A DNA stretch of 64,000 nucleotides from Raillietiella orientalis (lineage: Eukaryota): contig JAYWIR010000003.1 of NCBI GenBank assembly GCA_036172245.1, forward strand, positions 1,054,001-1,118,000, written 5' to 3'. The number at the start of each line of letters is the position of its first letter. Position 1 is the first letter of the stretch. Of the stretch, positions 1 to 58,099 are shown piece after piece. Made by a program: the position numbers and the translations under genes. The notes beneath the pieces were generated by a model. It was not told the origin of the DNA, ran no database searches, and worked only from the letters and a program-made list of their open reading frames with translations.

Positions 1-3000
1 CTGCCTCGGGCAATGCCACAGATGTATCTTGCTCATTATCACTCTCTTCCATATCAGGCCAGGAATCCTCATCTATGTGAAGTGGGGAAGGAGATCGACG
101 TTTGATCTTCTTCTGTTAATACATAGCAAATCGTGAACAGCGCATACATATTCCAGTTTACCCTAAAGGACGGCAGTTTAGGTAAAGAGGCACGAAAACC
201 AAGACGAAAATTTTCGAAGTTATAGCATTCTACTCCCAGCTGGTCACGTGCTTCTAAGAGCAAAGACAATGAATTGAATTCCTGCTTAGCTGGTTTTTCC
301 AACGTGGCTCCCGGATCCGTCTCCTGCAAATGGGTCTAAAAAGCCCATTAAATATGCGAGAATTGAACCTTGAATTGCCTCAAGTTGTCATCCCACCAAT
401 TCTCAAAGCATTTGAAAGCTGTGTTCTCGATCATCTTCTTGCTGAAGTCCTTCTTGAGAATCTGCTTAAGCTCTGCTATGATTTGCGTTATCACCAAGCT
501 GGCAGCATACAATCAACCCAGTGCCAGTGCACCATCCCACTTACTTTACAGTATCACATTTGGATTCATCATCAACACTGTCAGGATAGGAGTGAGGAGG
601 TGGATAACGTGGCACTGCAACAGGGAAAGGAGGATAAGCATGCTGGGAATACACGGGAAACTGATTTGAGATGTTGGAATAGAAAGGGTACATTGGTCTT
701 CCGGAGAGCACAGGAGAATAATACCACCCATAAACTCCAGAAGGGGGAGGGAGCATGTATGGAGGGGGGCGGAAATAATTGACAGGATGAAAAGGTGATG
801 GAAGACCTGAAGGAACTGGCAGATGTGCATACCCTGCATAACCAGTACAACCATTGGAGGTCTGATCTAAGGGCATGCCAGTTTGAGGAGGGCTGGAAGT
901 TAGAATCTTTTCCTCTCCTGAGCTCAGACTAGACAAAGACATGCAGTCGTCTTCCGAGACGCAGCTAGCTTTCTCAGAATTTGTTTGCTCAGAAGAGCTG
1001 CTCTCAGCATATGCTTCATGCTTGAGATCTTCAAAATGCCATCGGCGACGTTTTTGCTTTTGGATCTTCCTGCCAATCTCACGTCGCATGGAATCTTCAA
1101 TAGATTTGCAGGTCTGGATGTTTTTCAGCGCACTCTCCACATTGGCCAGAATCATCTCTGTTTCATGTTGATCCTGTTCTTTTAATTGCAAAATTCTGTC
1201 CTTGGTGAATTGATGCCATTTCAAATATAACTCGTGATTTAAAAAAGGAGATGGAGGATGACTAAGAGGTTCAGAATCCTGCTCAGCAGGCACACTATCC
1301 AACACTTCCGAACAAAAACTACTGGAAGGTGGTCCATGATGACTGGATGAAGAGGAAATGTCTTCCTCTGATAATTCACTTACAGGATGTTCAGCAGGCA
1401 ATTCTTCACTGCCTGAGTCACTCAGACCTAGATTGACAAGGGAACTTAGCCCACCTTCACTTTTTCCCTTCAGAAGTAACTCAATTCTCTTGTCCAGGCT
1501 CATTTTATTCTGACTATCAGAGTCACTGTCCTCACTGCTACTACCTTCTCTGCTGTGACTTGCAGAAGGATAAACGGAAATCTGCTTTTCATAATTCACA
1601 CAAGAATCTGGGAACACTTTGCAAGTAGCCATTGGTGGAGGACAATTTGCATCCCACAAAACAGGGGTGCCAGCTAAACTTGGTGGTTGCGGAGGAGGTA
1701 CCCTATCCCATCCTGGAGGGGGCCATGGAGCATGTGGTGGAGGGGGAGGGGGGAAGCTATGGTATTGGTTTATTGTATATGAATAACCATCAGCTATCCG
1801 AAGAGGATGTGGGGGTGGCAAATGACTGAGCGAAGGGGGAGGAACATGAATTGGTGGAGGAAACTGTTGAGGAAAATCCAATACAGGGGTTACTCTTGAA
1901 GAAGCTGAGTGATAACCAAAATCAGATGCAAAACTGCTTCGATCTACACTTAAATAACTTTTTTCACTATAAGTATAGCTTTTGTCACTTAGTACTGAGA
2001 CAGGTGTGGATAAACAATTTCGACACGACCTGCTATCACTGGTTTCATTTTCAGTTTTAATCTCAGAGTTTTCAATTAACTTTATTCCATCTTTTTCAGG
2101 GGTGGAGCTGGTGCTGTACTTGGAAGATGTTCCTTTCTCACCTTCATGATCCCCATCCACCAAAGGAGTAACTTTTTTCAATTCTGATTTGCTTTCAAAT
2201 ATTTTCCTGCATTCATCACCTGTAGGTAAACAAAGATCATCTGTACTACGTGCAATAACATCAGCACTTAAATGGAGTAACAGCACATATCTGCCACCCA
2301 GAAGAGTGTCACCCTTCATTATAATTTATTACATTCTTCTTAGACTTATTTAGGTTTCATATTAAGCTCTCCTTACCAAACTGATCTAGGAAGACATCCA
2401 ATTTTTTCCCCATAACCGACTTTTCATTCAAATTTTCCACACAACTGTTGGCTCCCTGGATAGTTTCAAAGACAACTCTAGCAAGTCCCAAATGCTTTTT
2501 GGTCATAGGATGGTAATATATGTGCAATTCTTCTACTGATCCATACTTTGTTACTAAGTCAGTAAGGAAACCTTTATCAACATTGTCATTCAAATTTGTG
2601 ATGGTTACTTCAACTGGAGGTGGGATTCCCACATAATTAGCATCAATCTAAGGTTTAGAAAATTCAAAGATTTGCATTGTAATCCTAGGTATACCTTGAA
2701 TTTGGGCACAGGCAATTCAAGAATTTCTGATCTTGTCCATATTTTTGTAAGATGGGATCGCGGATCTCGCAAATGTATTGGAGGATATGTGGGATCATTC
2801 AAAACACGTCCATCATAACGATATATTTTAAGTTTTCCTTTATCTCTTATTAGCAATGGATCCTGAAGTAGTTTCCAAGCTCTGCAATATAAAAGAATTT
2901 TAAACTATTTTCTAAGTGAATAAAGCAAATCAAATTAAATCATTAATTTATTGTAACCTTGAAAGATAACAAATTTCTTCACAAACAAAACATTAGCCTA

Positions 3001-16654: not shown

Positions 16655-23846
<7,192 letters not shown>

Positions 23847-28778: not shown

Positions 28779-31700
28779 GGGAAAAAAGATGAAAGAATTC
28801 ATCGCGTTGGTGACTGGTCAGAACATATAAGCTCTTCTGGCAAGATATATTATTATAATTATGTTACTGAAGTTTCCCAATGGGAAAAACCCAAAGAATG
28901 GGTGGAAATGGGAAAAAAAAAAATACGTGACAAGGAGAAGGATAGAAAAGAATCCCAAAATGGTAAGAGTGAATAAAATTTCAATACACTTAACCATGAA
29001 GTTTGGAAATGAGTATGAATCTTAAAGTGTAGTCGTTTTTTTCCAAAGTTGTCAACCGTTGCTCATGATATACAGTGAGTCCAGCATTTATGCAATTATC
29101 TATCAACCCTATTGCATAGATAAAAAATGAGTGCTTTGTTATACTCATTTTACCATTAATTGAACTAATCATTAATTGCCAAATTTTTCTTATCAAGCTT
29201 TGATTTTTAGCTTTTCTAAGCAAAATCATTACAAATGTTGGAAAACTTTTTTAATGATACCTTGTTATGTGACAAGTCAATCAAGATATGTCTGAAAGTT
29301 CAATTCAACATTATGGTACCATAATCTTCCCTTCTTTATCGTTTTATTAACAATTGTATCATTTTTTAAAGTCGACCTAGTAACAGTGAAATCATTCTTC
29401 AAACTCTGTTTGCTATTATCAGTGAATATGAATTTTCATTCCCAACTTTCCAAAGTTTGCCTAACAATGTCTGAGATTTCAAGGTTGTAAACATGATAGC
29501 CATATAGATCTTCATTTCAAATTCCTGTATGATAAATTACAATCATTTTTATTGCAGCATCATTTTCAGAATATCAATCTTTTGAGTTGATTTGTTAGAA
29601 ATGTTAATTTTCTTTTTGTTATTAATCCTTATTGATATGCATGAATCGCATTTGGAATAAGTGAAGTATTTATATGTCACATACTGTAGACACAGCATCA
29701 TGATCCAGTAGTTTATGGGACTTTTTTGCATTTTTTGGAATTCCTTTTCGATCTGGCCAGTTAGACCATATTTTTGAATATGCTAAATTAACTTAAGGGA
29801 TTACTAACTGTTTCAAACATTCATTTTGTATGTGCTACATGTGTAACTTGCATTCTCATTCATGTTGCATTGAAACATATATTTATACATGTAATTAAAA
29901 TAGGATTGTTTTAACAATATTGATAGCTTAGAATCCCAGATTCGTGTCCTTATCTGTAGTAATAACCCTAAAAATGTTTTAAATTAGCTGTCACATAGGC
30001 AAAATAAAGATTTATGATTCAGATGTTTAATACTAAAAACAATTCATAATGATTTATGGTTGCTTTAGTTTTGTTTTGCACATGTTATGTGGCATTAATT
30101 TGATTGTTTACTTTCATATGACTGCATTGAACAACATTTCCAAAATTTATCATGGATGTGCAAGATAGCGTTATACTCATGAAATCAGCAAGGAATACCT
30201 CTAGGATACTTATTTGGAGAGATGCCTTCCTGTTACATTGCTATAAATAGGCTGTTTTGTTTTTTAAGCAAAATTTATATTTGATGAGTAACTGATTAGT
30301 TGAAATACGTTGTGGTTCAGTGAATTTTTACTGAACAGTAAGCAACCAAATAATAAATCAGTCATGATATCTGAGTACCCAAGGATGCATCAGCAGAGAT
30401 GTGTCAGGAATGTTATGAAGATCAAATTAATTATTCAATCAATTTAATTGCTGACATGTTTTTTTATCACTAGAAACCTGAATTTTGAAATTGAATAATG
30501 ATTAGTCTGTGTTTTTAGGTAGTTGTGTCTTCTATTGGCAATGCTTTTTGATGTAGCAGTGTTTTTCTGTGTTAATTTTCTGTTGAAAATCCTTTATTAA
30601 TATGCATTAAGATGTTCACAGTTTATGTGCACTGCAAAATTATTGTATGTATCATTTGCCCAGTAATATGGTCTCATAGTTTACATTTTTTCTTCAAGAG
30701 ATTTAATTTGTTGAATTCTGTGTGCTATTTTCCTGTTGGTTTAATTGTTTGCAAAATTGTTTATTGTTACTTTTGCAACTTTTAACATTGCCAACATGAG
30801 ACTCAGTGTTTTAAAGTTGCAATTATTTTTATTTCATGTCTGTAGATTATCCTTAGATCTTATGTATTTCCTTGAAAGTCTTCCATTGACTTTGATCTGT
30901 TTAATGCTGTAAGGCAAAATAATCCCAATAAAGTTAAAGAGCTTATTAATCAGGGTGCTAGAATTAATACTCAAGAAGAAGGTGTTTATGGCAAAAATCC
31001 TATACACATTGCTGCTGAGAACAATAATAAAAGCATTATAGAGTTTCTTTTGAGCAAAGGAATAGACTGTAATGAGACTGAAAGAGTGGGTAATACATTA
31101 CTACACTATGCTGTGTGGAGAGACTGTTTGGAGACTGCTAACTTTTTCATTGATGAAAGGGCAAATAATTAATGCTGTAGATATTTCCAGCCAATTGGTA
31201 AAAAGTCTATATATATTTCTGCTGAGAATAGCAATAAAAACATTATAGAGTTCATCTTAAAACTTCTTAATCGTATAAACTAAATAAAAGTTAAAGCATG
31301 ATGTCTTCATTTCTGGACAATTCAACTTCGTTATAAACATTTTGTGAATCACGCTTGTTCTTGCATTGTCCAAGAAGTTTTCATGGTGCTCTGTTCTTTT
31401 TGGCTAGTAAAAGTGAAATCTGAAGTTGAAGTGAGCATTTTGTTCTTTCAAGTGAAGGAGTGAAATGCTGGAAACATATAATTGAACAAATTAATCCCGA
31501 GCAATAATGTTTGTTATACTCACGTAATGTTTGTTAAACTCAATTAATAGTGTATACTCATGTTTGTGTGTGCTTGCATGCATAAATGTATATGTTTTTT
31601 TTTGCTATCACCCTTATTTCTAATTCTTGAAATGTACACAAGGAATACAGTTATCCGGAATTAAAAGCCATTCATAATTCAGAACGTGCTGTTCAGTTGA

Positions 31701-37515: not shown

Positions 37516-38502
37516 TTATGGCACACTTAAAAAGAAGTTCACATCGTAGCACGCGATCTCCTCTTGGTCTTTCTTGAGCTCCAGCCGAATATGATAATTG
37601 GTTTCAATAAGAGGTATTATATCCGGCATATGGAATGTGAATTGCCTTTCAAATTGGAAAGGAGGAAACGGACAGCGTCCGACAACACCGACCACTGACA
37701 GGAACGTGCAGACGCTGTCGAAGTGGCAGCTTCCGAAGTTATCGCTGCAGGATATTTCAGACCATTCGCCCATCATATCCACCTCCGCAAATACATCCAC
37801 CTGAAATCAGTGGACTCAAGTTGAACTCTGGTTCCGATGCTAGAATGCGAGCACAGCTCCGTGAGGTGCGCTCCAGGATCTCTGGTTCGGGTCAGAGATG
37901 GCAGGGTGGCGGGAAGAGAAGATTGCACTTACCGATAAGCTGCTGTTGATCTCAATTTTCAGCTCACCACTCAGTTGAAGGTCCACAATTCCCGGGAATA
38001 CTATCGGATCCGGCTCGATCACGAGATTGACGTCAAGAGCATCTCTTGTATTCGGGGAGCAGCTGCCGAAGCTGAAGCCATTCTGGAAGCAAAGAAGGAA
38101 CAATCGAAATGGTCCGCAGTTTTGCCTGTGCTTTCCGCAGACCCATCTGCGCCGTATTGCACATGCCCCCACTCCGCAGCACGTCTCCTACTGAAGTCAC
38201 CCTCAATCCTTCAAGAGATTTTCGCCATCCTCCTTCAGCCACAGGGGAGTCGTTGAAAGTTCCGGAGATTCGGAAAACGGCAGGGGTTGGGAAAAGAAAT
38301 CCTACCATCATGGCCGATGGTAGGCGGTGTCCACAAATGATCCCTCGGGAGCCTTCCGCCTTCAGCCTGTAACTCGCAAAAAGTTGGTTACCTTTGGGAG
38401 ATTCCAGACGTGTATCAGATTTTCCAGAAAGTTTTGGCCACGGTGAGCGGTCCTTGCAGAGGTCTCGATGACGATGAGAGACAGCAGGAGAAACCGAATC
38501 AT
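37516..38502 (-). CDS. GM2A: GM2 ganglioside activator-like secreted ML-domain lipid-binding protein (181 aa)
   Basis: Three phase-0 exons with GT-AG introns and an intact frame: 38502-38392 (signal peptide MIRFLLLSLIVIETSA...), 38082-37933 (FSFGSCSP...LVIEPDPIVFPGIVDL) and 37800-37516 (GEWSEISCSDNFGSCHFDSVC...CPF...NYHIRLEL...IACY). The Cys pattern is as in GM2A. Confidence 0.87.
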
Positions 38503-46357: not shown

Positions 46358-48171
46358 CTATAAACACTCAAGGAGGTGGTGGAGTGCTCTGCTTCCAGTG
46401 CTGACGCAGCACCGAATCCTCCTCAAAAGTGCGCTTTGGTCGTGTGGTCCATAGCTCGTGGTCAGCACATGCAAAAACTCATTTGCGCGGGAACGACCGA
46501 AATCCCGAAGAAAGAATGTACAAATGTCGCTTGGAAGTTTTGAAAATTGAGTCTCCCACATTCCTTTGGGTGCATAAAGAACTAAAGATGAGGTCTATGA
46601 TAAATCGAGGTGCTATCAGTTTTTTTTCTTTCCTTTTTCTTTAAAAATCTCGTTGCTGCACCACCGGAAGACTGAAGCGAAAACATGCGCGATACGCTGT
46701 CTGAAGGAATGAGGGACGACACATTTTCAAAGTCTTGTAGAGGAGCTTAGATTCTCTGGACAGTGGACGACACCCTCCCCCCCCCCCCCCCCCCAAAAAA
46801 AAAAAAAAAAAAAAAAAAAAACGCTGGGAATTCTCAGTGCTGGTTGAAAGCGAGCAGCTCTATTTGACTTCACGCTGCCATGCGAGAAAATAAGCCCATT
46901 CTGGTGCACTTTGGAGAGATCGTTACTGTTGGCCTGGGAGGATGCAAATCCTTATCATGGGTTCCCCTATTTCCGTTGCTTTCCTTCCAGCTTTTTTCCT
47001 TCTTCCATGGAAACCATCATTCAAAAGCCGGCGCTGAGGAATCAGGATGGTTATCGCGCTTGCTTTAAGCCACGGACGGCTCTGTGTGAACTGTGTCGGC
47101 TGGAATCCACCGTTTTGGTGCTTACACGAACCAAGAGAGAGAAGATCCTGCTTCGAATCACAAGTGGAGAAGAATCTTTTCCATCCTTTGTCAGCAGTAT
47201 TCAGAATCCGGCTACGTCACTTTGAGAAAATGAAGTCCCTTTGAGATGCTGGCTGCAATGGGTGGAGACTTCCTTCTCCCCTCCCACTCTATGAGTTTGT
47301 GCACTCAGAGGCGATCACATGACCTTCTCAGCACCCTCGTATCGGTGACTACTAAGCAGTGCGCCTCAAAACAGCATCCAGGAGGAAGGGTGCAGCATGC
47401 TTCCATGAAGCGCAGAACACGAAGCCCGTCACACGCGCTTCCTCTCGTCCTGAGGGGGAGTCCCGATGGGAAGTTGGGACTACTGGAAAACACCTGAAAC
47501 GCTGGATGGCGGAGCGGAATCCCTATGCGTCGAATGGACGGTCGGATAAAGTAGATGGAGGAAGGCGGTGGTCATAGAGGCACTCGAAAGCACAATGCAG
47601 ATTCTTTTGGAAATGTAGGGTGAGTACGCACGCCTGAGAGATCAATGTTTGGGAAACTTCACTTCCGTTTTTGTGGTATCCGGTGATGGAACAGAATTGT
47701 GCAAAGACGTTCGAATCGAAGACAGCAGAAAGAAACAGCCAGTATGCACATGCACGGTACCGAAATGTAGGTGCCTACGAAACGCAGCTGGATTACGATG
47801 ACGTCATTCCTTAGCCGGCATGCAAGCGTGCTCTGTCCTGCTAGAGTTTCGTCTCGCGGAGCGAGTTCCGTGGACCACACCACTCGAGCGCGAGGTCGGC
47901 TTTCGTGTTTTCCTCGTGAGATGCGCGCGCCCCCTCGAGGAGGCGCGAAAATGGAGGGCAGTGGGAATGTTTTTAAAAAGAGTCTGGAAATGGCAGCCTC
48001 CATCATGCGAGAGATCCGCTTGCAGATCTCCAAGAGATTTACCGCGTCCTTCAGTGTGAGCAAGTTCGAGGGGGGATGACCATGTGCTGCAGTCGGTTCG
48101 TGCACCATCACCGAGGGCAGACAGGGGATATGTGATTGCCGTGAGCTGGTCACCGTCCTATGTGGAACCAC
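46358..48171 (-). mobile_element. Fragments of Tx1/L1-like ORF2 downstream of the RT domain (degenerate)
   Basis: ISRMMEAAISRLFL...IFAPPRGGA (within 47659-48171) and RIRCCVSTGSRALHHLLECL (46358-46561) resemble the post-RT L..P...GG and zf-RVT regions. Confidence 0.35.
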
Positions 48172-48407: not shown

Positions 48408-48750
48408 ATGAATCCTCAACTCATCACTGCGAGAAAGTTCCTGCACGTCCTTGAGAGAGTACTGAGCTATCCGAGGAATGAGGCAGATTTCCTTTCTGAG
48501 AAGTTCCGAATTTTGCACAAACACTATGACTTCTCGGCTGGCTCGATGGCCTCACCATGGCTTCTCGGAAACGATCCCTGGAACGTGGACAAGACTCATG
48601 CCCGTACTTTATGCTAAGGGAATAACCGCTGTTATGGATATCTTCAAGCTGTTTGTTCAAAGCGGTTACGACATGATACGGTTTGGCTGCGCATTTTGTA
48701 CAACCACCGGCAATCGAAGGTACCAACTGCTTCGCTTATCATGTCCGTGA
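48408..48750 (+). pseudogene. BAF-like paralog copy C (frameshifted)
   Basis: MNPQLITARKFLHVLERVLSYPRNEADFLSEKFRIL.. then a frameshift near a duplicated CTTCTCGG, then ETIPGTWTRLMPVLYAKGITAVMDIFKLFVQSGYDMIRFGCAFC. Clearly homologous to 56958-57359, with the same AAGACGATGAATC start context. Confidence 0.75.
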
Positions 48751-49382
48751 AGACATCCTCTGACGGAAAACCCCACGTACCTGCGATGCCTAAACTTGAA
48801 TTAAAGTTAAAAAAAAGTTCTGCAGCACCGCAATACCCGACGGAGGCAAGCTTCCAGTTAAAATTCGTGTGGTCCTCCTTGTCAGCGAAATCGAATGGTA
48901 GCTTCGAGGATCGCCCTCTCCTCCAGCGTGGCGATTCGCTTGTCTTCTGCTTTCAAGCTCCGTCGATTTCCATGGGAGCAGCACCGCCGATGCGCGCAAC
49001 AGCGACGGCGATTGCAGCATCCGTTGTGGCAGCAGCTAATTTGGCCGGGATATGCCATTACGTAGATACGCAGCCTTCGGTGTCAGACAGGAGCATAGCT
49101 CGCCTGTAGCTCCCGCTCCCCCTTTTCCGCAATTGCACTCGTGCGTGACTGGGATCCCGGTTGGTGTTTTCGGGCAAGATTCGGTGAGCTCAGTGGTCGA
49201 GAAGGTGGCGTCGGTGCGGATGGCGCTGCACGCGCAATCAGGCCACTGCCGCGAGCTGATCATCATGCTAAACAGAAAAAAACAGAACCATTATCGAGCA
49301 GGAACCCTTTGGGTCTCCGGTAGGGCCGCGTGGGTTGCGCGGCATGACCGGCAACCCGTCGACAAGACAATCATCTCGTACC

Positions 49383-49411
49383 ATGGAGATCGCTTCCACG
49401 GAGGTGGACCT
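49383..49411 (+). promoter_or_regulatory. Conserved upstream element of BAF-like copies (candidate promoter/5'UTR motif)
   Basis: ATGGAGATCGCTTCCACGGAGGTGGACCT (29 nt) is identical at 55466-55494, with a diverged version at ~56710-56742. Each lies ~220-245 nt before a BAF-like start codon. Confidence 0.45.
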
Positions 49412-49603
49412 CAATCCGTAACCTGGACAACAAGCACGCCACCCCGAATACTTAAACCTCCACCGTCCTTCTTTCTCCTGCCATCTCCTCCACCTCGTCT
49501 TCTGGGAATTTCCCCCAGTGGCACCTAGCAGCATTTCCACACAAATCCAGCGACTGTCTTCGTCGCCAAAAACTTCCCGTTGCTTTTCCCATTTCACAAG
49601 AAG

Positions 49604-49957
49604 ATGAACACGGTTACCACGGTGGAGTTCCTGAATGCCTTGATGGAAGTACTGGAATATCCTGAGAACAGACGACGTTTCTCTTCTTATGAGTTTCAAA
49701 ACTTCTGGCGTAAAGGCCACTTAGATCATCCAGTGGACATGATATCTGGAATGACAAGAAGAATGCTGTCCAGGCTTGATTCTGCTGGAATCTTCCAGGC
49801 GCGGCAAATCTTCCAAATTTATGTACGAAGCGAACGAAACATGGAACGGTTCGTCCAACAACTCTGTGCACTAATTGCAGATCGCGAGTACAGATACCTA
49901 GCAAACGCAAAAATCATATACCTTTCAATGCTATTGTACGAACTGTGGAGGGCTTGA
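49604..49957 (+). CDS. Divergent barrier-to-autointegration factor (BAF)-like protein, copy A (117 aa, intronless)
   Basis: SYEFQNFWRKGHLDHPVDMISGMTRRMLSRLDSAGIFQARQIFQIYVRSERNMERFVQQL aligns without gaps to human BANF1 [60 protein letters not shown] (recalled from memory). Intact ORF with AATAAA at 49996-50001. Confidence 0.72.
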   Translation: MNTVTTVEFLNALMEVLEYPENRRRFSSYEFQNFWRKGHLDHPVDMISGMTRRMLSRLDSAGIFQARQIFQIYVRSERNMERFVQQLCALIADREYRYLANAKIIYLSMLLYELWRA

Positions 49958-51646
49958 CGGTGCTGGCTGCAAGAACGGGTAATCACAGAGAGTAAAATAA
50001 ATTTTTGGTCAAAGGAAGCGTCCACACCAGAAGGTGAAGTGAAGGTGAGCAGCAGCTTCGAGTAAAGACCGGCGGAATGTATTCGCTTGTCTTCTGCGTA
50101 TGCCGCTGCGTCTATTTCCAGGGGAGCAGCACCGCCGATACGCGCAACAGCGACGGCGATTGCAGCGTCCGTTGTGGCAGCAGCTTCGCGTACCCTTGGA
50201 GGAAAGACAGCATCTGCTGAACAAGACATTGTGCACAGGGGCATCTAAGCACATCTGAGTTCTCAGCAAGAACGTGCGACACCAAACACCGCCAGGACCA
50301 CCACTTGGATGCGCACACTCCTACAAAGGGAGCCGCGCGTAGAGGTCTCCCTGCCCAAGGGAACATTCCCCCTGGCTGGGCAACTCGAAGGCGTCCCGGA
50401 GTTGAGAGAGGGTGGGAAAACGCCTTCGCTGTAGGAGGCGACCCCGCTGGACGATGCATTCGGGTCAGGTTCCAGCACCGCTTGCAACGATCGCCTGCCG
50501 TCCACCTCTAGGTTAGTGGGCATGGATTTCCTCCGAGAACCGGGCACGACGATCCAACTGCTGCAGCCTCCTTCGTCAAGCGAGCAACCAGAACATGCTC
50601 TACTTACTGAACGACGTCGAAGAAGCGGCTGCAGCAGACCTCGGTTGGCGTTTCCGCAGGCACCGGCCATGCTTTCGGTTTCCCCCTTGCCACACGTCAG
50701 CCCAATGTGTTGAGTCAGGCGCATAGGGAGCGGCGGGAATCGGAAAAGAAACGGAACCATCACCTCACCAACTAGAAGTTCGTTCTGTCGAGCGATCGTC
50801 AAGCAACGGCGGCTTACTCTAAGCGCAAAAGGGACAACTTCCTCACGCAGAGAGGGAAGCGATTGCGGTGTCGTCAGGTGTGGCTTGAGAGGAAGAAGTT
50901 GGACATCGCCTGAAGCATTCTCTTCCGTGTCGGCACCCTCTAAGACCACTCAGTGATTTCGGCAGGATATCCGACAGTCGATCGCTTCATTCACGAAATG
51001 CAAGCGGCAGTGGGAGGTGCAGCTCTTGAGCTGAGCGTTCTTTACGGTTCGGAACGTCTCGGCGCCGCAGGCGTGTGCGCAGACGGTGCACCTTCGTACT
51101 GCTCGACTCGTTGCTTGTGTTTGGGAGCCCGCGGAGATTGGATGCAGTTCGCCTGCTCCGCCAAAGACATGCTGCCACCCACGTTTGCGTAAGTCCAAGG
51201 CATAGTTTGGGCCTCGCGTTTGGCTGCGTTTCCTCGAACCGTCTGCCTTCAAGGAGCGTAACTAAGCAGCGTGCGTTTCTTCACGGCAGATCTGAAGGAA
51301 GACGGCGTTTGTGCATCCTCCAGTCCCGCGCTCGTCCGCTCCGGGACTGCACGCGGAAGCTGCACTCGTTCCGGACCAGTGCGAAGCTTCGCAGTGCATC
51401 GCAGTCGGAGATGACGAAGTTCCTCTCCACCTGGACCGGAGACGCGAATCCGCTGAGACACAGCGTTCGCACTGATGACGTGGTGATTTCTTTTTATCGT
51501 GTCCGAGGGGTCCCGTGGACACCCGAATGTCTGTGGAACATGATGCTTACCCTTGGTGCGCAAGGGTGTAGAGACGCGACCGTTTGGAAGGTGGTGCCCT
51601 GATTGCGGTTGCGGTGGGAGACCCAAGAAGTGCAGCGACATTGGAT

Positions 51647-52338
51647 GGATGATCCTGCAGTCCGGGGAGGTGCCATGCCCATCCGGAGAAGTGAAGGCGC
51701 CGGGCTGCAGCGTTTCCAACAGGACCATCGCGCCACTGCTCCACCATCTTTGACGGTCTCCACGGAGTGGGCAACTCTCGGGATCAGGATTTGCATCAAT
51801 GGTCGGCCTATCCAAAAGGTGGTCCGCTCCCACTCTAGTGAACGGACGCTCCGCTCTCGCACGTTGCGTGCATTTCATTCAAGAGAGATCGCGCAGGCAA
51901 CCGTGGCTGGCTTCCCGCAGCTTCCGCTTTCGATCGATCCAGCTGCGTACTCTGCGAGTGCAGCTCACCCTCTTTTCGCCAGCAGTTGCGTTTCTTCTTC
52001 AAGGCAAGCCGGATGAGTGCGCACCCTCCGGAGATCACTTTCGAACTCCACGAGGCTCGTGGAGAACGACCGAAGCGAGAGGAGTGCATTCTGAGAGTGA
52101 GTGCGTGCCTCGTCCCTGGAGTGGCGCACCTCTTCTGCACGAAGCAAACGGAAGTGTTCCTCGCGGCAGCTGCTTTTCCCGCAGCGTGAACCCCGTGTCT
52201 CGTTGCTGAGGTCTTTCCATGCGCTCGCTGTTCGTCCGGAAAGAGCCGCTGCAACGCCCAGAACGCGTTCTCCGAGGTCGCGTGAGTCCGTGCGTGACCA
52301 CAGCTCGTGCCTTGCACCTCGCGGAAACCGCGCAGCAG
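51647..52338. repeat. Left arm of a 692-bp inverted repeat
   Basis: Reverse complement of 54473-55164 (position x maps to 106811-x). Mirrored ORF translations are identical, and spot-checked nucleotides are identical. Confidence 0.95.
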
Positions 52339-52449
52339 GGTGCAGTGCTGTCAGAATGCTTCACTGTGAAACGACGCTTCGTGGGCAGCCAGGTTCACCT
52401 GTTGTTTTTTTTTCTTGGCGCAGCCGGAATCGCTAATGTGGGTGATTTG

Positions 52450-53580
52450 TGTATGCGCCAGCATGTGTTGCGCTGCGTTCTAGCGGAAGGACTCTTACGG
52501 TCGCGGCGTTTGCCAGCTGTCTCATGGGCCATCCGTTTAACATCTCTGTTTTACTGCGATCTAGCAGGAGACTTGCCGACAAGGCCTCTGGATGCTGCCA
52601 AGTGCCCTCCCCAGGGAAGGCATCGCCGTAGATTGGGGGGTCATTGCCGCCCACGTACTCCTGGTTGGACACTCCAGGACCTTCGCTTACGCGTCAACTG
52701 TTTCTTCTAGCCACGCGCTAGAATTGGCAGGGCCACGCACCATCCAAGTGTATTCCTTCGCCAGTGTGGCTATTCGTTCGATAAGGAGGCCGCATCTCAC
52801 GATCTTCCGGCCGGGGCACAAACGTCGAGACGCAAACCCTTTTGGTCCGCATATACGGCGAGTAGGAGGCGCAGCGGAACGCATCAACGGGTGTACTTCG
52901 CTGCGATGGCGATGGTTCGCTATCGCAACTGAATCTCCATCCGCTCTAGCGTCAGGAGGCGAAGACCGACGTCCCAACGCGGAGCACACAAGTCCATCAG
53001 AATAACTCGGGACCTTCCGTTGCCCCACAGGGCGATGCGCAGGAAGTCCTTAGTCCATTCATTTGAACTCGGAGTGGACGGAAGAAATAAAAAGCAGGAG
53101 ACGGAGGATGGGCGTCGCGAACGTGTTCCACACAGCGGCTCAATGCTGCCAGGGAAACCTGTCTCTCAGGAACGGGCTGATCCCTGCTCCACTTTTTGGA
53201 GATGACCTGACCAGGCTTCTGTCAGACAGAAGTCCTTCGACGGAACGGAGAGGTACTTCATGTACCTAGCTGTGGGGATCCCCAGGAGGATCCAATCAGG
53301 GCGCCCAGCCCACGTCGCACCAACTGGCACAACCGAAGACTTGGTGCTGCTCACCCGAAGTCCTGTTCCGATGCTCAACATCGCGAAGAAATGTTCCAGA
53401 GCTGAGACCGAGGCGGACATGGGGAGCAGGAGCAGATCATCGGCATAAGCGGACACGGCAGGCGTGCCGTGGCAGAGTTCGGCAGGGTGGCCAAAGTCTC
53501 TCTGTATGCTCTCAGCACCAACGCGAAGTAGGTGCTAAAAAGCAGGGACTCAGGCTATCGCCCTGCCTCATCCTGCGGCA
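52450..53580 (-). mobile_element. Tx1/L1-like reverse transcriptase fragment
   Basis: MRQGDSLSP (~53572-53546), then VSAYADDLLLL...GTGLRVSSTKS...MKYL (53456-53166), the canonical non-LTR RT motifs. Frameshifted. Confidence 0.78.
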
Positions 53581-54472
53581 CACCTGCACGCCGTACACGT
53601 GTGGTCCCCTAAAAAAGAGCTTCCTCAGAGGCTAGCAGCGCAGCAACGCGGGGTGAAGCGCAGCGCTGCGCGCATCCTCGTATCCCACGCGGAACTTTGC
53701 GTGGGCGGTCAGCGTTGGTGCGATGATCCGATGCATCAAGGAATATCAAACTCAGATAATTGATGGATCGACTTTTAAGGAGATGTTGACGTTTCGCGAA
53801 CAGCTGCCTCTGCGCAGCTGCTCCTCCTTCCCGCTGCATGGTCCCCGGCACGTCGGTCGCCCGCAGCTCTCTTCGCGGCTGCGTGCGTCGCCCGGGCACA
53901 CGGAGAGCTCGCGCGCCATTCAACGGTGCGACTGCTGACTAAAATCGCAAAACGACGAGAAGGTTCGAAGGTCCGCATGGATTGACGCGCAAATGGATTC
54001 GAACGCCCAGCGAGAGCAGCTGACAGTCTTTCAGGTGCATCTCGTTAACAGTGACGTCATTCCAGTGGGTCTGTTCCTTTGGGTCTGTGTACAGAAACTG
54101 CAACTACGCCTCATGAGTTCGTCTGACCTTCCGCCTCTTGATCTTGCGCAAGCGTCTCACAAATCCTGCTCCATTTCTGCCTCTCCTCCAGCTGCACGAA
54201 TTCCCGCCAAGCATGCTGCATCCATTTTTACCTAACCTCATACACCTTCCCCTTCTGTCATCACGCAGCATCTTAACATCTGGCCATCCACCTACCATCG
54301 CTCCGGCATGGCTACGGAAGAACCAACCGACTGTCGTCCCACGGAAGCGACCCCAAGCGAATACATTCATCCAGTCAGGGGAATCGGGTCGCACATCGGG
54401 AGAAGCGCATCCCCACATCAATGAGTGCGTACACTCCGAAAGGTCGTTGCAACGCACGGCACGTCGAAGCTT

Positions 54473-55164
54473 CTGCTGCGCGGTTTCCGCGAGGTGCAAG
54501 GCACGAGCTGTGGTCACGCACGGACTCACGCGACCTCGGAGAACGCGTTCTGGGCGTTGCAGCGGCTCTTTCCGGACGAACAGCGAGCGCATGGAAAGAC
54601 CTCAGCAACGAGACACGGGGTTCACGCTGCGGGAAAAGCAGCTGCCGCGAGGAACACTTCCGTTTGCTTCGTGCAGAAGAGGTGCGCCACTCCAGGGACG
54701 AGGCACGCACTCACTCTCAGAATGCACTCCTCTCGCTTCGGTCGTTCTCCACGAGCCTCGTGGAGTTCGAAAGTGATCTCCGGAGGGTGCGCACTCATCC
54801 GGCTTGCCTTGAAGAAGAAACGCAACTGCTGGCGAAAAGAGGGTGAGCTGCACTCGCAGAGTACGCAGCTGGATCGATCGAAAGCGGAAGCTGCGGGAAG
54901 CCAGCCACGGTTGCCTGCGCGATCTCTCTTGAATGAAATGCACGCAACGTGCGAGAGCGGAGCGTCCGTTCACTAGAGTGGGAGCGGACCACCTTTTGGA
55001 TAGGCCGACCATTGATGCAAATCCTGATCCCGAGAGTTGCCCACTCCGTGGAGACCGTCAAAGATGGTGGAGCAGTGGCGCGATGGTCCTGTTGGAAACG
55101 CTGCAGCCCGGCGCCTTCACTTCTCCGGATGGGCATGGCACCTCCCCGGACTGCAGGATCATCC
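54473..55164. repeat. Right arm of a 692-bp inverted repeat
   Basis: Reverse complement of 51647-52338; spacer 2134 bp. Confidence 0.95.
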
Positions 55165-55691
55165 AATGTGCTCCATCATCACATCGTCGTACTTTCCCCT
55201 CGCGCGCGCAGTGAATGCACCACCGTCTTACTGGTGAATCTCTACGCGCTGTGTGGTCGAGAGTTGTTCACCATAATGGCTGGAAAACGCGTGATGAGGA
55301 GACCTAGTTGAGGTCAATGCTGCAAGCTGGTCACCATGCTAACAGGAAGGCTTACCGTACTATTTTCGAGCAAGAAGCCTCTGGCCTTCAATTGGATTTC
55401 ACGTTTGTGGCAACATTACCCTGGAGAGGGATAATAACCCGCCGTCGAGGCAATCACATCGAAAGATGGAGATCGCTTCCACGGAGGTGGACCTGAATAA
55501 TGGATAACCCAGGAAAGAAGCAAGCTCATCCGAACAGTGGTTAAAGTTCCTACTTCCTCCTCTCTCCTGTTATTTTCGCCTTGTCTCAACCGGAAATTGC
55601 TCCCCTTGACAGCGTGAGAAAATTCCATGTAAATCCAACCAGGCATTTCATCGTGAAAAGTTCTTTGCTGCCCTTGGAACTGCGCAAGATT

Positions 55692-55886
55692 TTGTTCCCG
55701 GAAGTCGTCACTTCTCGATATCTCTTGAACATCGTACTATACGTAGTAAAATATCCACAAAACCGGAAAGATTCCCTTTCACGAAAGTTCTGCAGATTCT
55801 ACGCACGCAATGACTTTGCAGATGACTCGAAAACACCTGTAAGATTCCTAATTTTTCCGGGGCAAACTCCAGAAACTTCTCATTGA
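55692..55886 (+). pseudogene. BAF-like paralog copy D (ATG lost, truncated)
   Basis: (L)FPEVVTSRYLLNIVLYVVKYPQNRKDSLSRKFCRFYARNDFADDSKT matches the N-terminal half of 56958-57359 (FYARND shared), then homology stops. Confidence 0.7.
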
Positions 55887-56957
55887 GAAGAATCTATTTG
55901 GACACGGAGGCGGTGGAACGCGCGTCAGCCAATTGAACGCGCCGTCCAGCACCCCCCCAACTGTACCCTGTTCCCCGCAACTCCGCTCGCAGGATGCCCC
56001 CCATCTTGCGGGCGCAGTGCCATTTCCGCCCCCTCTCCGCATTCGCAGGTCGGAAGTCTTTTTTCGGACCGCCACGAAATGGCGCCACCCGGGCGACATG
56101 CGGAGCAATCTCATCAGCGTCCTGGATAAGACGCAGAGGACGCCTTGCGGCGAGCGGCGATCCCTTCTTCCATTTCCTCTGCCCCCCGCCTCCCTCTGAA
56201 TGGAAGATTCTCCCTTCCTTTCTTTCGTTCCTTATCTCATGTTTTCGGTTTTCCCTTACCGCCTTCCCTGCCGGCTGGGACCGCTGCGGACCGCGTGCCG
56301 GAAAGTTGGCCATCTCCGTGCGTTACCATCTTATCGGGTGGTCCAAACACGCGCTTTTCCACAAAAACTCGAAGCGATTATTCCACGTAGCGAATGGGCC
56401 GCAGAAACCGGGCGACAAACCACGTGGACTTCCACGCCGCACGGAGCAGTTACGATGCACGACCACCCTTCCCCTGAAATGGCAGCAGTCGACGCTGCTG
56501 ATATTGCACCGGGGTCTCCCCTGCAACGCACGTCGGAATCACCGGACCAGGGATGTTGGGAGGGTACGCAGAAGTGCAGGGGGAGAATGAGTCGGCGTGA
56601 AACGCGCGACGAGGTGGCCAAGGTTCACCCCTTGTCGCAAGCACAGTGCCACCACACGAAACTATTTTTGAGAAGAAACGCCTTGGTCTGCGGAAGGGCA
56701 ATCATCTCGAAAGATATGAGACGCTTGCAAGGAAGTGGACATAAGCAATCGGTTACCCAGACAACCAGAAAGTCTCCTCGAATAGTGGAACCGCGCCCGT
56801 CCTTCTCTCTCCTCCATTTCGCCTTCCTCTCCTCCTGGGAATTGCCTTCTCCCCCCACTCACCCTCCCTTCACAGAGGCAGGAATTCGAAGCATTGAAAC
56901 ACAGCCAAGCACTTCATCGCGAAACGTTGTTCGTTGCCCTTTGAACTTGGGAAGACG

Positions 56958-57359
56958 ATGAATCGTGAATTCGTCACTTCGCCAGAGTTCGTGAAATTCC
57001 TGGCTGCAGTAATACAGGATCCGGAGAACCAGATAGAATTCCTTTCCGAAAAGTTCCGAAGTTTCTACGCACGCAATGACCTCGAAGCCGACGCGGAAAC
57101 GATACCTGGAACGCGGAGTTTTATGATGCCCATCCTTTATCATCACGGCATAAGTACTGCCGCAGATATGTTCGTCCTCTTTGCCGGAAGCCAGTACGAC
57201 ATGTTTCAATTTATCACGGAATTCTGCGAACTCCTCGGCGACGAATCTTTCGATTACATGAACAACGCACGCATGATCTTCTTTTCGATGCTGGTCATGG
57301 CTGTGAGGATGCCTCTGCACCTTATTCCTGACGTAGGCAGAGTGCCCCCGCCATTTTGA
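56958..57359 (+). CDS. Divergent BAF-like protein, copy B (133 aa, intronless)
   Basis: LSEKFRSFYARNDLEADAETIPGTRSFMMPILYHHGISTAADMFVLF..YDMFQFITEFCEL keeps the BAF pattern S.K.R.F...(I/L)(A/P)G.......L...G...A...F. Paralog of 49604-49957; intact ORF with AATAAA at 57379-57384. Confidence 0.68.
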   Translation: MNREFVTSPEFVKFLAAVIQDPENQIEFLSEKFRSFYARNDLEADAETIPGTRSFMMPILYHHGISTAADMFVLFAGSQYDMFQFITEFCELLGDESFDYMNNARMIFFSMLVMAVRMPLHLIPDVGRVPPPF

Positions 57360-58099
57360 CTCCGAACTCGGACTTTGAAATAAAGTTTCGCAGCACCGAA
57401 GTACCCGACGGGGGCGAGTCTTCCGCTCGTCACCACCCCTGCCGTCCTCTTTGTGAGCGAAGGCGGACGGCAGCTTCGAAGAACGCAAGTTCGTCTACCG
57501 GAAGGCATTCGCCTGTCTTTTGCGCTCCCAGCTCCGTCGGTTTCCAGGGAAGCAGCATCGCCGACGCGCGCACCAGCCGAGCAGATCCCGGCGTTCCCTG
57601 TGGCAGCTGCTCCGCGTTCTCAAGGCGTAAGGCACGCGCGTGCTGCACACAGCATCGTGAACGGGAAGCGTCCGAGGAGCCCTACGCTTAGCGCCGCGAC
57701 ATGGGAAACCCAAGAGCCGACAGCAGCCCCACCATTTCGATGCGCACGCGAGCACCAAAAGGAACTGCGCCGCCGAATGTCTCACCGCCCAGGGGAACAG
57801 CAACCGCAAATTTTCGTCTGGCGTGGCTCTGCAACGCGCCGGGAAGCGTCGAGAAGGTCGCAAACCTCTTTTTCTGTAAGGAGCTGACGCCGCTGTGCGG
57901 TGGATTGCCGCTAGGCACATGCACCGTTTGCAGCTATCCCCAGGGATTCTTGTCGCCACCAGCTTGGCCTCTTTTTGAAAAAAAGAAAAAGAAACGTGCG
58001 CCAGTGATGCTGAGGAGCATCCCCGCCAGTTCCGCCGTGGCTTCGGCAGACGTGAGCTGACGACTGGGACGAGCCCAAGAGATCGGTCCGCGAGTTCGA

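Follow-up and report, generated by a model that had tools for sequence, protein, structure and literature searches.

In a 64-kb stretch of DNA from Raillietiella orientalis (the whole stretch that was analysed, in the following called the window), four paralogous gene copies are located on the plus strand, two of them intact (B and D) and two decayed (A and C). They probably form a tandem family of genes without introns, which is specific to the lineage, evolves by birth and death and encodes very divergent proteins with the fold of BAF, the intact pair having been under purifying selection in the past. BAF is a small protein of animal cells, which bridges DNA and rebuilds the nucleus. According to this explanation, each gene would encode a whole 88-residue BAF domain and, in front of it, a helical extension of approximately 23 to 25 residues that is specific to the family; B and D would have stayed intact and constrained for most of their divergence, A would have been frameshifted and C reduced to a 5′ fragment. 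A relationship to BAF and a birth-and-death pattern had been proposed earlier from the letters of the stretch (referred to as the sequence-only reading), and the pattern shows in the presence of two intact copies next to two broken ones.

The four copies and their shared unit

The copies are found at the following positions, given together with the strand and the state of each open reading frame (ORF).

48408 to 48750, plus strand: copy A, a frameshifted pseudogene with the N-terminal part in the frame 48408-48548 and the remainder in the frame 48541-48747
49604 to 49957, plus strand: copy B, an intact and intronless ORF from ATG to stop, 117 amino acids (aa)
55692 to 55871, plus strand: copy C, a 5′ fragment in which TTG replaces ATG, with a stop at 55869-55871
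56958 to 57359, plus strand: copy D, an intact and intronless ORF from ATG to stop, 133 aa

The proteins encoded by B and D can be aligned over 108 residues without a gap (32% identity, 58% positives, pairwise E value 4e-22) and match each other with an E value of 2e-18 in a tblastn search against the window. Copy A is regarded as frameshifted because D matches it in two different frames (48408-48557, E 3e-6, and 48508-48732, E 1.5e-13, tblastn against the window); a few additional codons are present at the break in the family alignment. The match of D to copy C in the same type of search (E 2e-6) is restricted to approximately the first 45 codons. Since homology to D stops near 55835, copy C is considered a 5′ fragment, of which the sequence past approximately codon 48 is lost. 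The similarity among the copies is thus well above what chance would give. A profile of the family, run against the six-frame translation of the window, retrieved these four sites only. The distance from start to start is 1196 nt between A and B and 1266 nt between C and D. The sequence-only reading had described four co-oriented paralogs in two pairs, each with a broken copy followed by an intact one at a spacing of approximately 1.2 to 1.3 kb. ORFs, tblastn and the family profile agree with it on the positions, ORFs and tblastn on the state of each copy, and the measured distances on the spacing.

Two of the four copies being visibly broken, an explanation has to be weighed in which all of them are dead, namely duplicates of an ancient BAF retrocopy in the course of decay, with B and D open by chance so far. 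This is considered unlikely, and the evidence on both sides is given below together with the measurements concerned.

The duplicated unit exceeds the ORF. The copies belong to units of the size of a gene (approximately 1.2 kb) that are arrayed in tandem, as follows from homologous upstream blocks, gene signals and a shared downstream block (named D1). The order within the unit would be approximately 250 nt of upstream sequence, a coding sequence (CDS) of approximately 350 to 400 nt, a poly(A) signal and the conserved downstream block. The following parts were located.

49353 to 49603, plus strand: upstream block of B, with homologous blocks in front of C and D, presumably a promoter or 5′ untranslated region
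55436 to 55691, plus strand: upstream block of C, found by repeat search, blastn, unit alignment and pairwise alignment
56697 to 56957, plus strand: upstream block of D, found by blastn (55449-55834 versus 56697-57100)
49996 to 50001, plus strand: AATAAA of B, 39 nt past the B stop
48934 to 49037, plus strand: D1 block of unit A, 90% identical to 50081-50185 and 77% identical to 57531-57611
50081 to 50185, plus strand: D1 block of unit B, 90% identical to the copy in unit A
57531 to 57611, plus strand: D1 block of unit D, 72 to 77% identical to the copies in units A and B

Upstream of the CDS, a repeat (D3) shared by B and C (49353-49415 and 55436-55498) is 84% identical. Pairwise alignment of the upstream regions resulted in identities of 0.66 for B and C (score 58) and 0.69 for B and D (score 44), with shuffled sequences scoring approximately 2; the regions of C and D are identical at 0.75 of 224 nt. 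With blastn, the C and D units are 67% identical over 413 columns, the upstream region included. The proximal part (approximately 130 nt) of the sequence upstream of A can also be aligned in the multiple alignment. A start context is common to the copies (caagaNgATGAA). AATAAA or ATTAAA is located 50, 39 and 20 nt past the stop of A, B and D, respectively, in line with the AATAAA signals assigned to the intact ORFs in the sequence-only reading; neither motif was found up to 400 nt past copy C. That the start context and the poly(A) signals are kept speaks against an array of dead copies only.

The D1 block is approximately 100 nt long and situated 120 to 185 nt past the stop in units A, B and D. 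It is the best-conserved portion of the unit (90% identity between A and B), whereas the proteins are approximately 31% alike. A structured RNA was considered for this block and rejected, with an unfavourable covariation term (+2.45) and compensatory changes in 2 of 35 pairs. Considered as a coding exon, D1 showed no clear coding periodicity, the substitutions in it being few.

Relationship to BAF

The link of the family to BAF is weak when judged from sequence alone and strong when judged from predicted structures. BAF (BANF1) is represented by the Pfam family PF02961 (SAM_BAF) and by the Protein Data Bank (PDB) entries 1CI4, 2EZX, 6GHD, 7Z21, 7ABM and 9J8M. AlphaFold2 models of B and D were built on a family alignment. 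The B model has a mean predicted local distance difference test score (pLDDT) of 81.7, with the remaining four models at 52 to 62, and the D model has a mean pLDDT of 80.4 and a predicted template modelling (TM) score of 0.77. When the B model was searched against the PDB with Foldseek, rows 1 to 8 were human BAF (E 0.012 to 0.051, probability 1.00, target TM score 0.76 to 0.84, rmsd 2.3 to 2.6, where rmsd is the root mean square deviation) and the next match had an E value of 2.5. The result for D was of the same kind: human BAF in rows 1 to 8 (E 0.049 to 0.19, probability 1.00, target TM score 0.82 to 0.88, rmsd 2.0 to 2.1), followed by a match with E 3.0. In VIA-align, an independent structural search across 48,161 representative chains, the BAF chain 9j8m_K was ranked first with both models, with all 88 BAF residues aligned in each case (88/88; B, Z 11.4 and rmsd 2.4, next chain Z 6.4; D, Z 12.3 and rmsd 1.8, next chain Z 5.7). 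The BAF fold is present across the whole domain in the predicted models of both proteins. A homodimer prediction for D yielded a score of 0.00 and a mark of 0.32, in an ESMFold2 run made without the family alignment, and speaks neither in favour of binding nor against it.

At the sequence level, PF02961 was the only Pfam family matching B at E values up to 1 (E 0.0047, 17.8 bits). The B domain alone gave an E value of 0.0028 and 18.6 bits and the longer B frame 17.2 bits, and residues 28 to 89 of B correspond to positions 4 to 65 of the 88-position profile, a match of ungapped length. In the ESM Atlas, B was nearest to two BAF clusters (0.94 and 0.93, with 179 and 178 of 256 features shared), and 16 of the 30 matches were BAF.

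Several results weigh against the assignment. The alignment used for modelling consisted of just five rows and the confidence of the models was uneven (one of five above 63 for B, three of five above 73 for D). The 17.8 to 18.6 bits obtained with B are below the PF02961 gathering score of 25, so that B is not a member of the family by that measure. D had no Pfam match of any kind, and neither D nor the pieces of A matched BAF at E values up to 10. When B, D and the family profile were compared with PDB sequences, no BAF chain was found at E values up to 10. The ESM Atlas returned no usable match for D. These results may be read in another way, in that the likeness to BAF would reflect a generic helical arrangement similar to SAM and helix-hairpin-helix (HhH) domains, or a bias of the predictor, and the family would be unrelated to BAF. 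The low identity to BAF (10–19%), Foldseek E values of merely 0.012 to 0.19, the sub-threshold Pfam score and the shallow alignment would all be expected then, and SAM and HhH domains do occupy the lower VIA-align ranks (Z 4 to 6). Nevertheless, this is very improbable: BAF stands 5 to 6.6 Z units above the next chain over its complete length, in two models derived from proteins which share 32% of their residues, and two sequence-based methods (Pfam and ESM Atlas) independently name BAF for B.

B and D are most likely BAF-derived proteins with a BAF fold, as judged from the models. This is accepted because three partly independent lines of evidence coincide in the case of B, and in the case of D the fold speaks for it. 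Of the BAF identity put forward in the sequence-only reading, the fold stands for both proteins and is joined by the ESM Atlas result for B; a Pfam assignment above threshold was not obtained and D remained without a sequence match. Its claim of high divergence is upheld by the structural alignments, where B and D share 10 to 19% of their residues with human BAF, and by the large databases, in which no sequence relative was detected. With D as the query, an exhaustive phmmer search of 1.84 billion representative proteins had 0 matches at E values up to 0.001, a word-index protein search revealed no sequence relative of B, and searches of metagenome contigs for relatives of B or D resulted in 146 and 166 pattern matches, none of which was confirmed.

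BAF binds double-stranded DNA independently of the sequence via a helix-hairpin-helix motif, and phosphorylation of its N-terminal Ser4 is reported to lower DNA binding. In A, B, C and D, a serine is aligned with position 4 of PF02961 (residue 28 in B), which may be human Ser4, the phospho-switch of DNA binding. A glycine in the first hairpin, presumably human Gly25, is shared by the copies which extend that far (A, B and D). Both equivalences rely on the usual human numbering and not on a computed mapping. The same applies to the positions assumed to be Lys6 and Gly47, neither of which is kept in B, while Lys6 is kept in D.

In passages of PMC3198171, BAF is described as conserved among metazoans and as a binder of double-stranded DNA, histone H3, lamins and LEM-domain proteins. 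According to passages of PMC13443024, it acts as a homodimer, the interface of which forms the binding groove for the LEM domain, and the length of BANF1 is 89 aa. BANF1 is the closest known counterpart of the family, and the models of B and D resemble it in that they match its fold over the full 88-residue domain (rmsd 1.8 to 2.4 Å). They differ from the normally highly conserved BANF1 in their low identity, and with 117 and 133 aa they are larger than the small single-domain protein of 89 aa described in those passages. In the B model, residue 24 is the first of the BAF domain, and in the D model residue 26, after a conserved helical extension of approximately 23 to 25 residues. This extension consists of one to two helices and is among the best-conserved parts of the family (consensus ...VT..FL..L..V..YP.N...FLS.KF). 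Further differences from BANF1 are that A to D form a cluster of several tandem copies, pseudogenes among them, and that the two intact proteins carry net charges of opposite sign, B being basic (isoelectric point 9.2, net charge +2.7) and D acidic (isoelectric point 4.6, net charge -9.2).

Coding history of the intact copies

Over 108 codons, the comparison of B and D with the NG86 method resulted in 0.68 nonsynonymous (dN) and 1.45 synonymous (dS) substitutions per site and a ratio (omega) of 0.47; with LWL85, omega was 0.49. The codon bootstrap of omega had a median of 0.47 and a 95% interval of 0.21 to 0.83, and none of the 287 usable replicates (out of 300) reached 1. Identity between B and D is 0.50, 0.60 and 0.44 at the first, second and third codon position, respectively, the third being the least conserved. 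The GC content at second codon positions (GC2) is 0.34 to 0.36 in B and D, and the flanking DNA has a GC content of 54 to 61%. When the CDS was shuffled with matched composition, the frame was still open in 5 of 5000 shuffles for B and in 10 of 5000 for D. Omega, the identity by codon position, GC2 and the shuffles argue that B and D encoded proteins during the greater part of their divergence, a present function being beyond the reach of these measures. An array in which all copies are dead is opposed by the omega value and its bootstrap, by the weak conservation of the third position relative to the second and by the rarity of equally long open frames in the shuffles. It is also opposed by the models, since B and D, at 32% identity, both still yield a confident BAF fold. 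The absence of a BAF fold, or a ratio near 1 together with missing transcripts, had been named as grounds for giving up the sequence-only reading; that reading is retained on this point because a BAF fold was obtained in confident models and the ratio for B and D is below 1.

Other observations count against lasting constraint. The synonymous changes between B and D are saturated (dS of 18 in the maximum-likelihood estimate), and the omega value is therefore approximate and silent on recent constraint. GC-rich DNA is rich in long open frames, and the window contains 178 frames of at least 90 aa from stop to stop, as an explanation of B and D by chance would have it. Pairs that include the broken copies A or C (42 to 55 codons) show omega values of approximately 0.5 to 2.0, as decay would give. 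Furthermore, B and D resemble each other less in their coding DNA than in their flanks (0.58 over 346 nt compared to 0.66 to 0.69). The coding DNA is no better conserved than its surroundings, which again favours four dead copies.

In the multiple alignment, the coding identity of B and D is 0.52 to 0.57. The values for the flanks are 0.69 upstream, 0.66 for the 600 nt downstream and 0.72 for the D1 block. The Jukes-Cantor distance of the flanks is approximately 0.42 (calculated by hand), far under the dS of 1.45. The relationships of the segments are mosaic, copy A being nearest to D in the CDS and nearest to B in the D1 block. The contrast between flanks and CDS is unusual for conserved genes and fits fast, possibly diversifying, evolution of the proteins. 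It is also compatible with gene conversion homogenising the flanks, as might be seen in the mosaic segments, and it fits the optimism of gapped alignments of non-coding DNA. Past purifying selection on B and D, as set out above, is still considered the probable history of the intact pair.

Genomic setting and possible role

The two pairs of units are separated by approximately 5 kb of unrelated DNA, in which an inverted repeat is located outside the gene family. The large inverted repeat that the sequence-only reading had seen between the pairs is confirmed as follows.

51646 to 55165, no strand assigned: inverted-repeat stretch with arms at 51646-52338 and 54473-55165, 693 nt each, 100% complementary, and a spacer of 2134 nt

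The ends of the repeat are sharp and similarity stops at the arms. No target-site duplication was found at the repeat, and none of its ORFs matched a Pfam family. The repeat may have arisen very recently, as a foldback or by insertion, or it may be an artefact of the assembly.

The window is eukaryotic, with spliced exons encoding RRM, bromodomain/EPL1, ankyrin and ML domains. Its left half has a GC content of approximately 0.31 and a ratio of observed to expected CpG of 0.60. From approximately 33 to 34 kb onwards, the GC content climbs gradually to 0.50–0.61 and the CpG ratio to 0.97, and this continues through the end of the window. The GC-rich right half contains almost no recognisable genes. 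The exons and the homopolymer runs of the window are listed below.

544 to 2647, minus strand; 17986 to 18309, minus strand; 22904 to 23284, minus strand; 30876 to 31169, plus strand: host exons of the AT-rich half (594-aa frame adjoining an RRM exon; bromodomain and EPL1 exons; ankyrin-repeat exon)
37519 to 37806, minus strand: ML-domain exon, PF02221 (MD-2-related lipid-recognition), E 4e-6, above the gathering score
40309 to 40333: homopolymer run, A25
46777 to 46821: homopolymer run, approximately C18 followed by A27

The bromodomain and EPL1 exons correspond to a BRPF-like gene. A search for relatives of the 594-aa frame resulted in a single weak match, and one with the bromodomain exon in none. 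The ML-domain exon is the sole Pfam family above threshold in the GC-rich half. Neither a poly(A) signal nor a retroelement domain was recognised beside the two homopolymer runs, and no Rfam families and no tRNAs were detected in the window.

The domain scan covered three sets of ORFs with a minimum length of 90 aa (7 + 52 + 59) and, of the 159 ORFs of 60 to 89 aa with a start at 33 kb or further on, 150 (268 in total); the other 9 of these short ORFs and all ORFs below 60 aa lay outside the scan. Reverse transcriptase, integrase, transposase, gag and other mobile-element or viral families were not found in the 268 scanned ORFs. In the sequence-only reading, the genes had been placed in a "retrotransposon graveyard" with shattered frames of transposable elements. 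A transposon-rich setting is without support because no mobile-element domain was found in these ORFs.

The change in composition at approximately 33 to 34 kb would also suit an origin of the BAF-like ORF from a mobile element or an endogenised virus, with the GC- and CpG-rich half of 30 kb as the degraded insertion. A viral source would likewise agree with the third ESM Atlas neighbour of B, an unnamed cluster of 111 aa that is described as "Viruses 50%". This origin is improbable. Besides the scan, which yielded no viral or transposon family, a fold search with the B model against BFVD revealed no viral structural neighbour (best E 1.5), and the 6 and 5 pattern matches obtained for B or D among IMG/VR contigs included no confirmed relative. 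In addition, the copies are arranged in tandem with common flanks and not dispersed, the units are without terminal repeats, and an ML-domain exon of the host type is located within the GC-rich part.

As for their role, B and D may be derivatives of BAF that function as small proteins of chromatin or of the nuclear envelope, and may act as specialised or modulatory paralogs in the manner of the vertebrate BAF-L (BANF2). In passages of PMC13443024, BAF-L is described as 53% similar to BANF1, forming heterodimers with it, binding DNA more weakly and being enriched in testis and pancreas; weak or no DNA binding and enrichment in testis are given in passages of PMC13443024 and PMC8877947. Like BAF-L, B and D are duplicated and diverged BAF paralogs, and BAF-L provides a precedent for a modulatory role. 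They differ from BAF-L, which is a single gene, by being clustered and far more divergent; presumably, BAF-L also lacks an N-terminal extension. With 10 to 19% identity to human BAF, B and D do not approach the closeness of BANF2 to BANF1 given in those passages, and orthology to BANF2 is not plausible at such a divergence of the sequences. Searches of the open literature led to BAF-L, to a Banf2 variant of cichlids and to general BAF biology. No tandem and highly divergent BAF expansion was found in them, which is weak evidence of its absence from print.

Given the homodimer of BAF and the heterodimer of BAF-L as precedents, the most likely role of B and D would be that of BAF paralogs with a specialised or modulatory task, either on chromatin or at the nuclear envelope. 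Changed partners are suggested by the extension at the N-terminus and by the charges, and with their opposite charges B and D may bind different partners or form a heteromeric pair. A putative role in defence against mobile or viral DNA is possible. This role, a germline chromatin system and a dominant-negative BAF modulator had been put forward in the sequence-only reading and are to be regarded as hypotheses. There is a small chance that B and D are a fast-diversifying pair of oppositely charged proteins, the coding sequences of which would change more rapidly than the flanks. They would serve as a lineage-specific modulator or decoy of the canonical BAF or as a restriction system against foreign or mobile DNA, and the turnover of the genes would be driven by genetic conflict. 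If so, B and D would represent a fast-evolving branch with several copies, the first to become known for a protein of the nuclear envelope and of DNA bridging that is otherwise very conserved.

For the BAF family as a whole, B and D, if expressed, would mean that the fold tolerates duplication, an extension at the N-terminus and diversification to less than 20% identity. They would then also be natural variants with which DNA bridging, dimerisation, LEM binding and phospho-regulation may be separated from each other.

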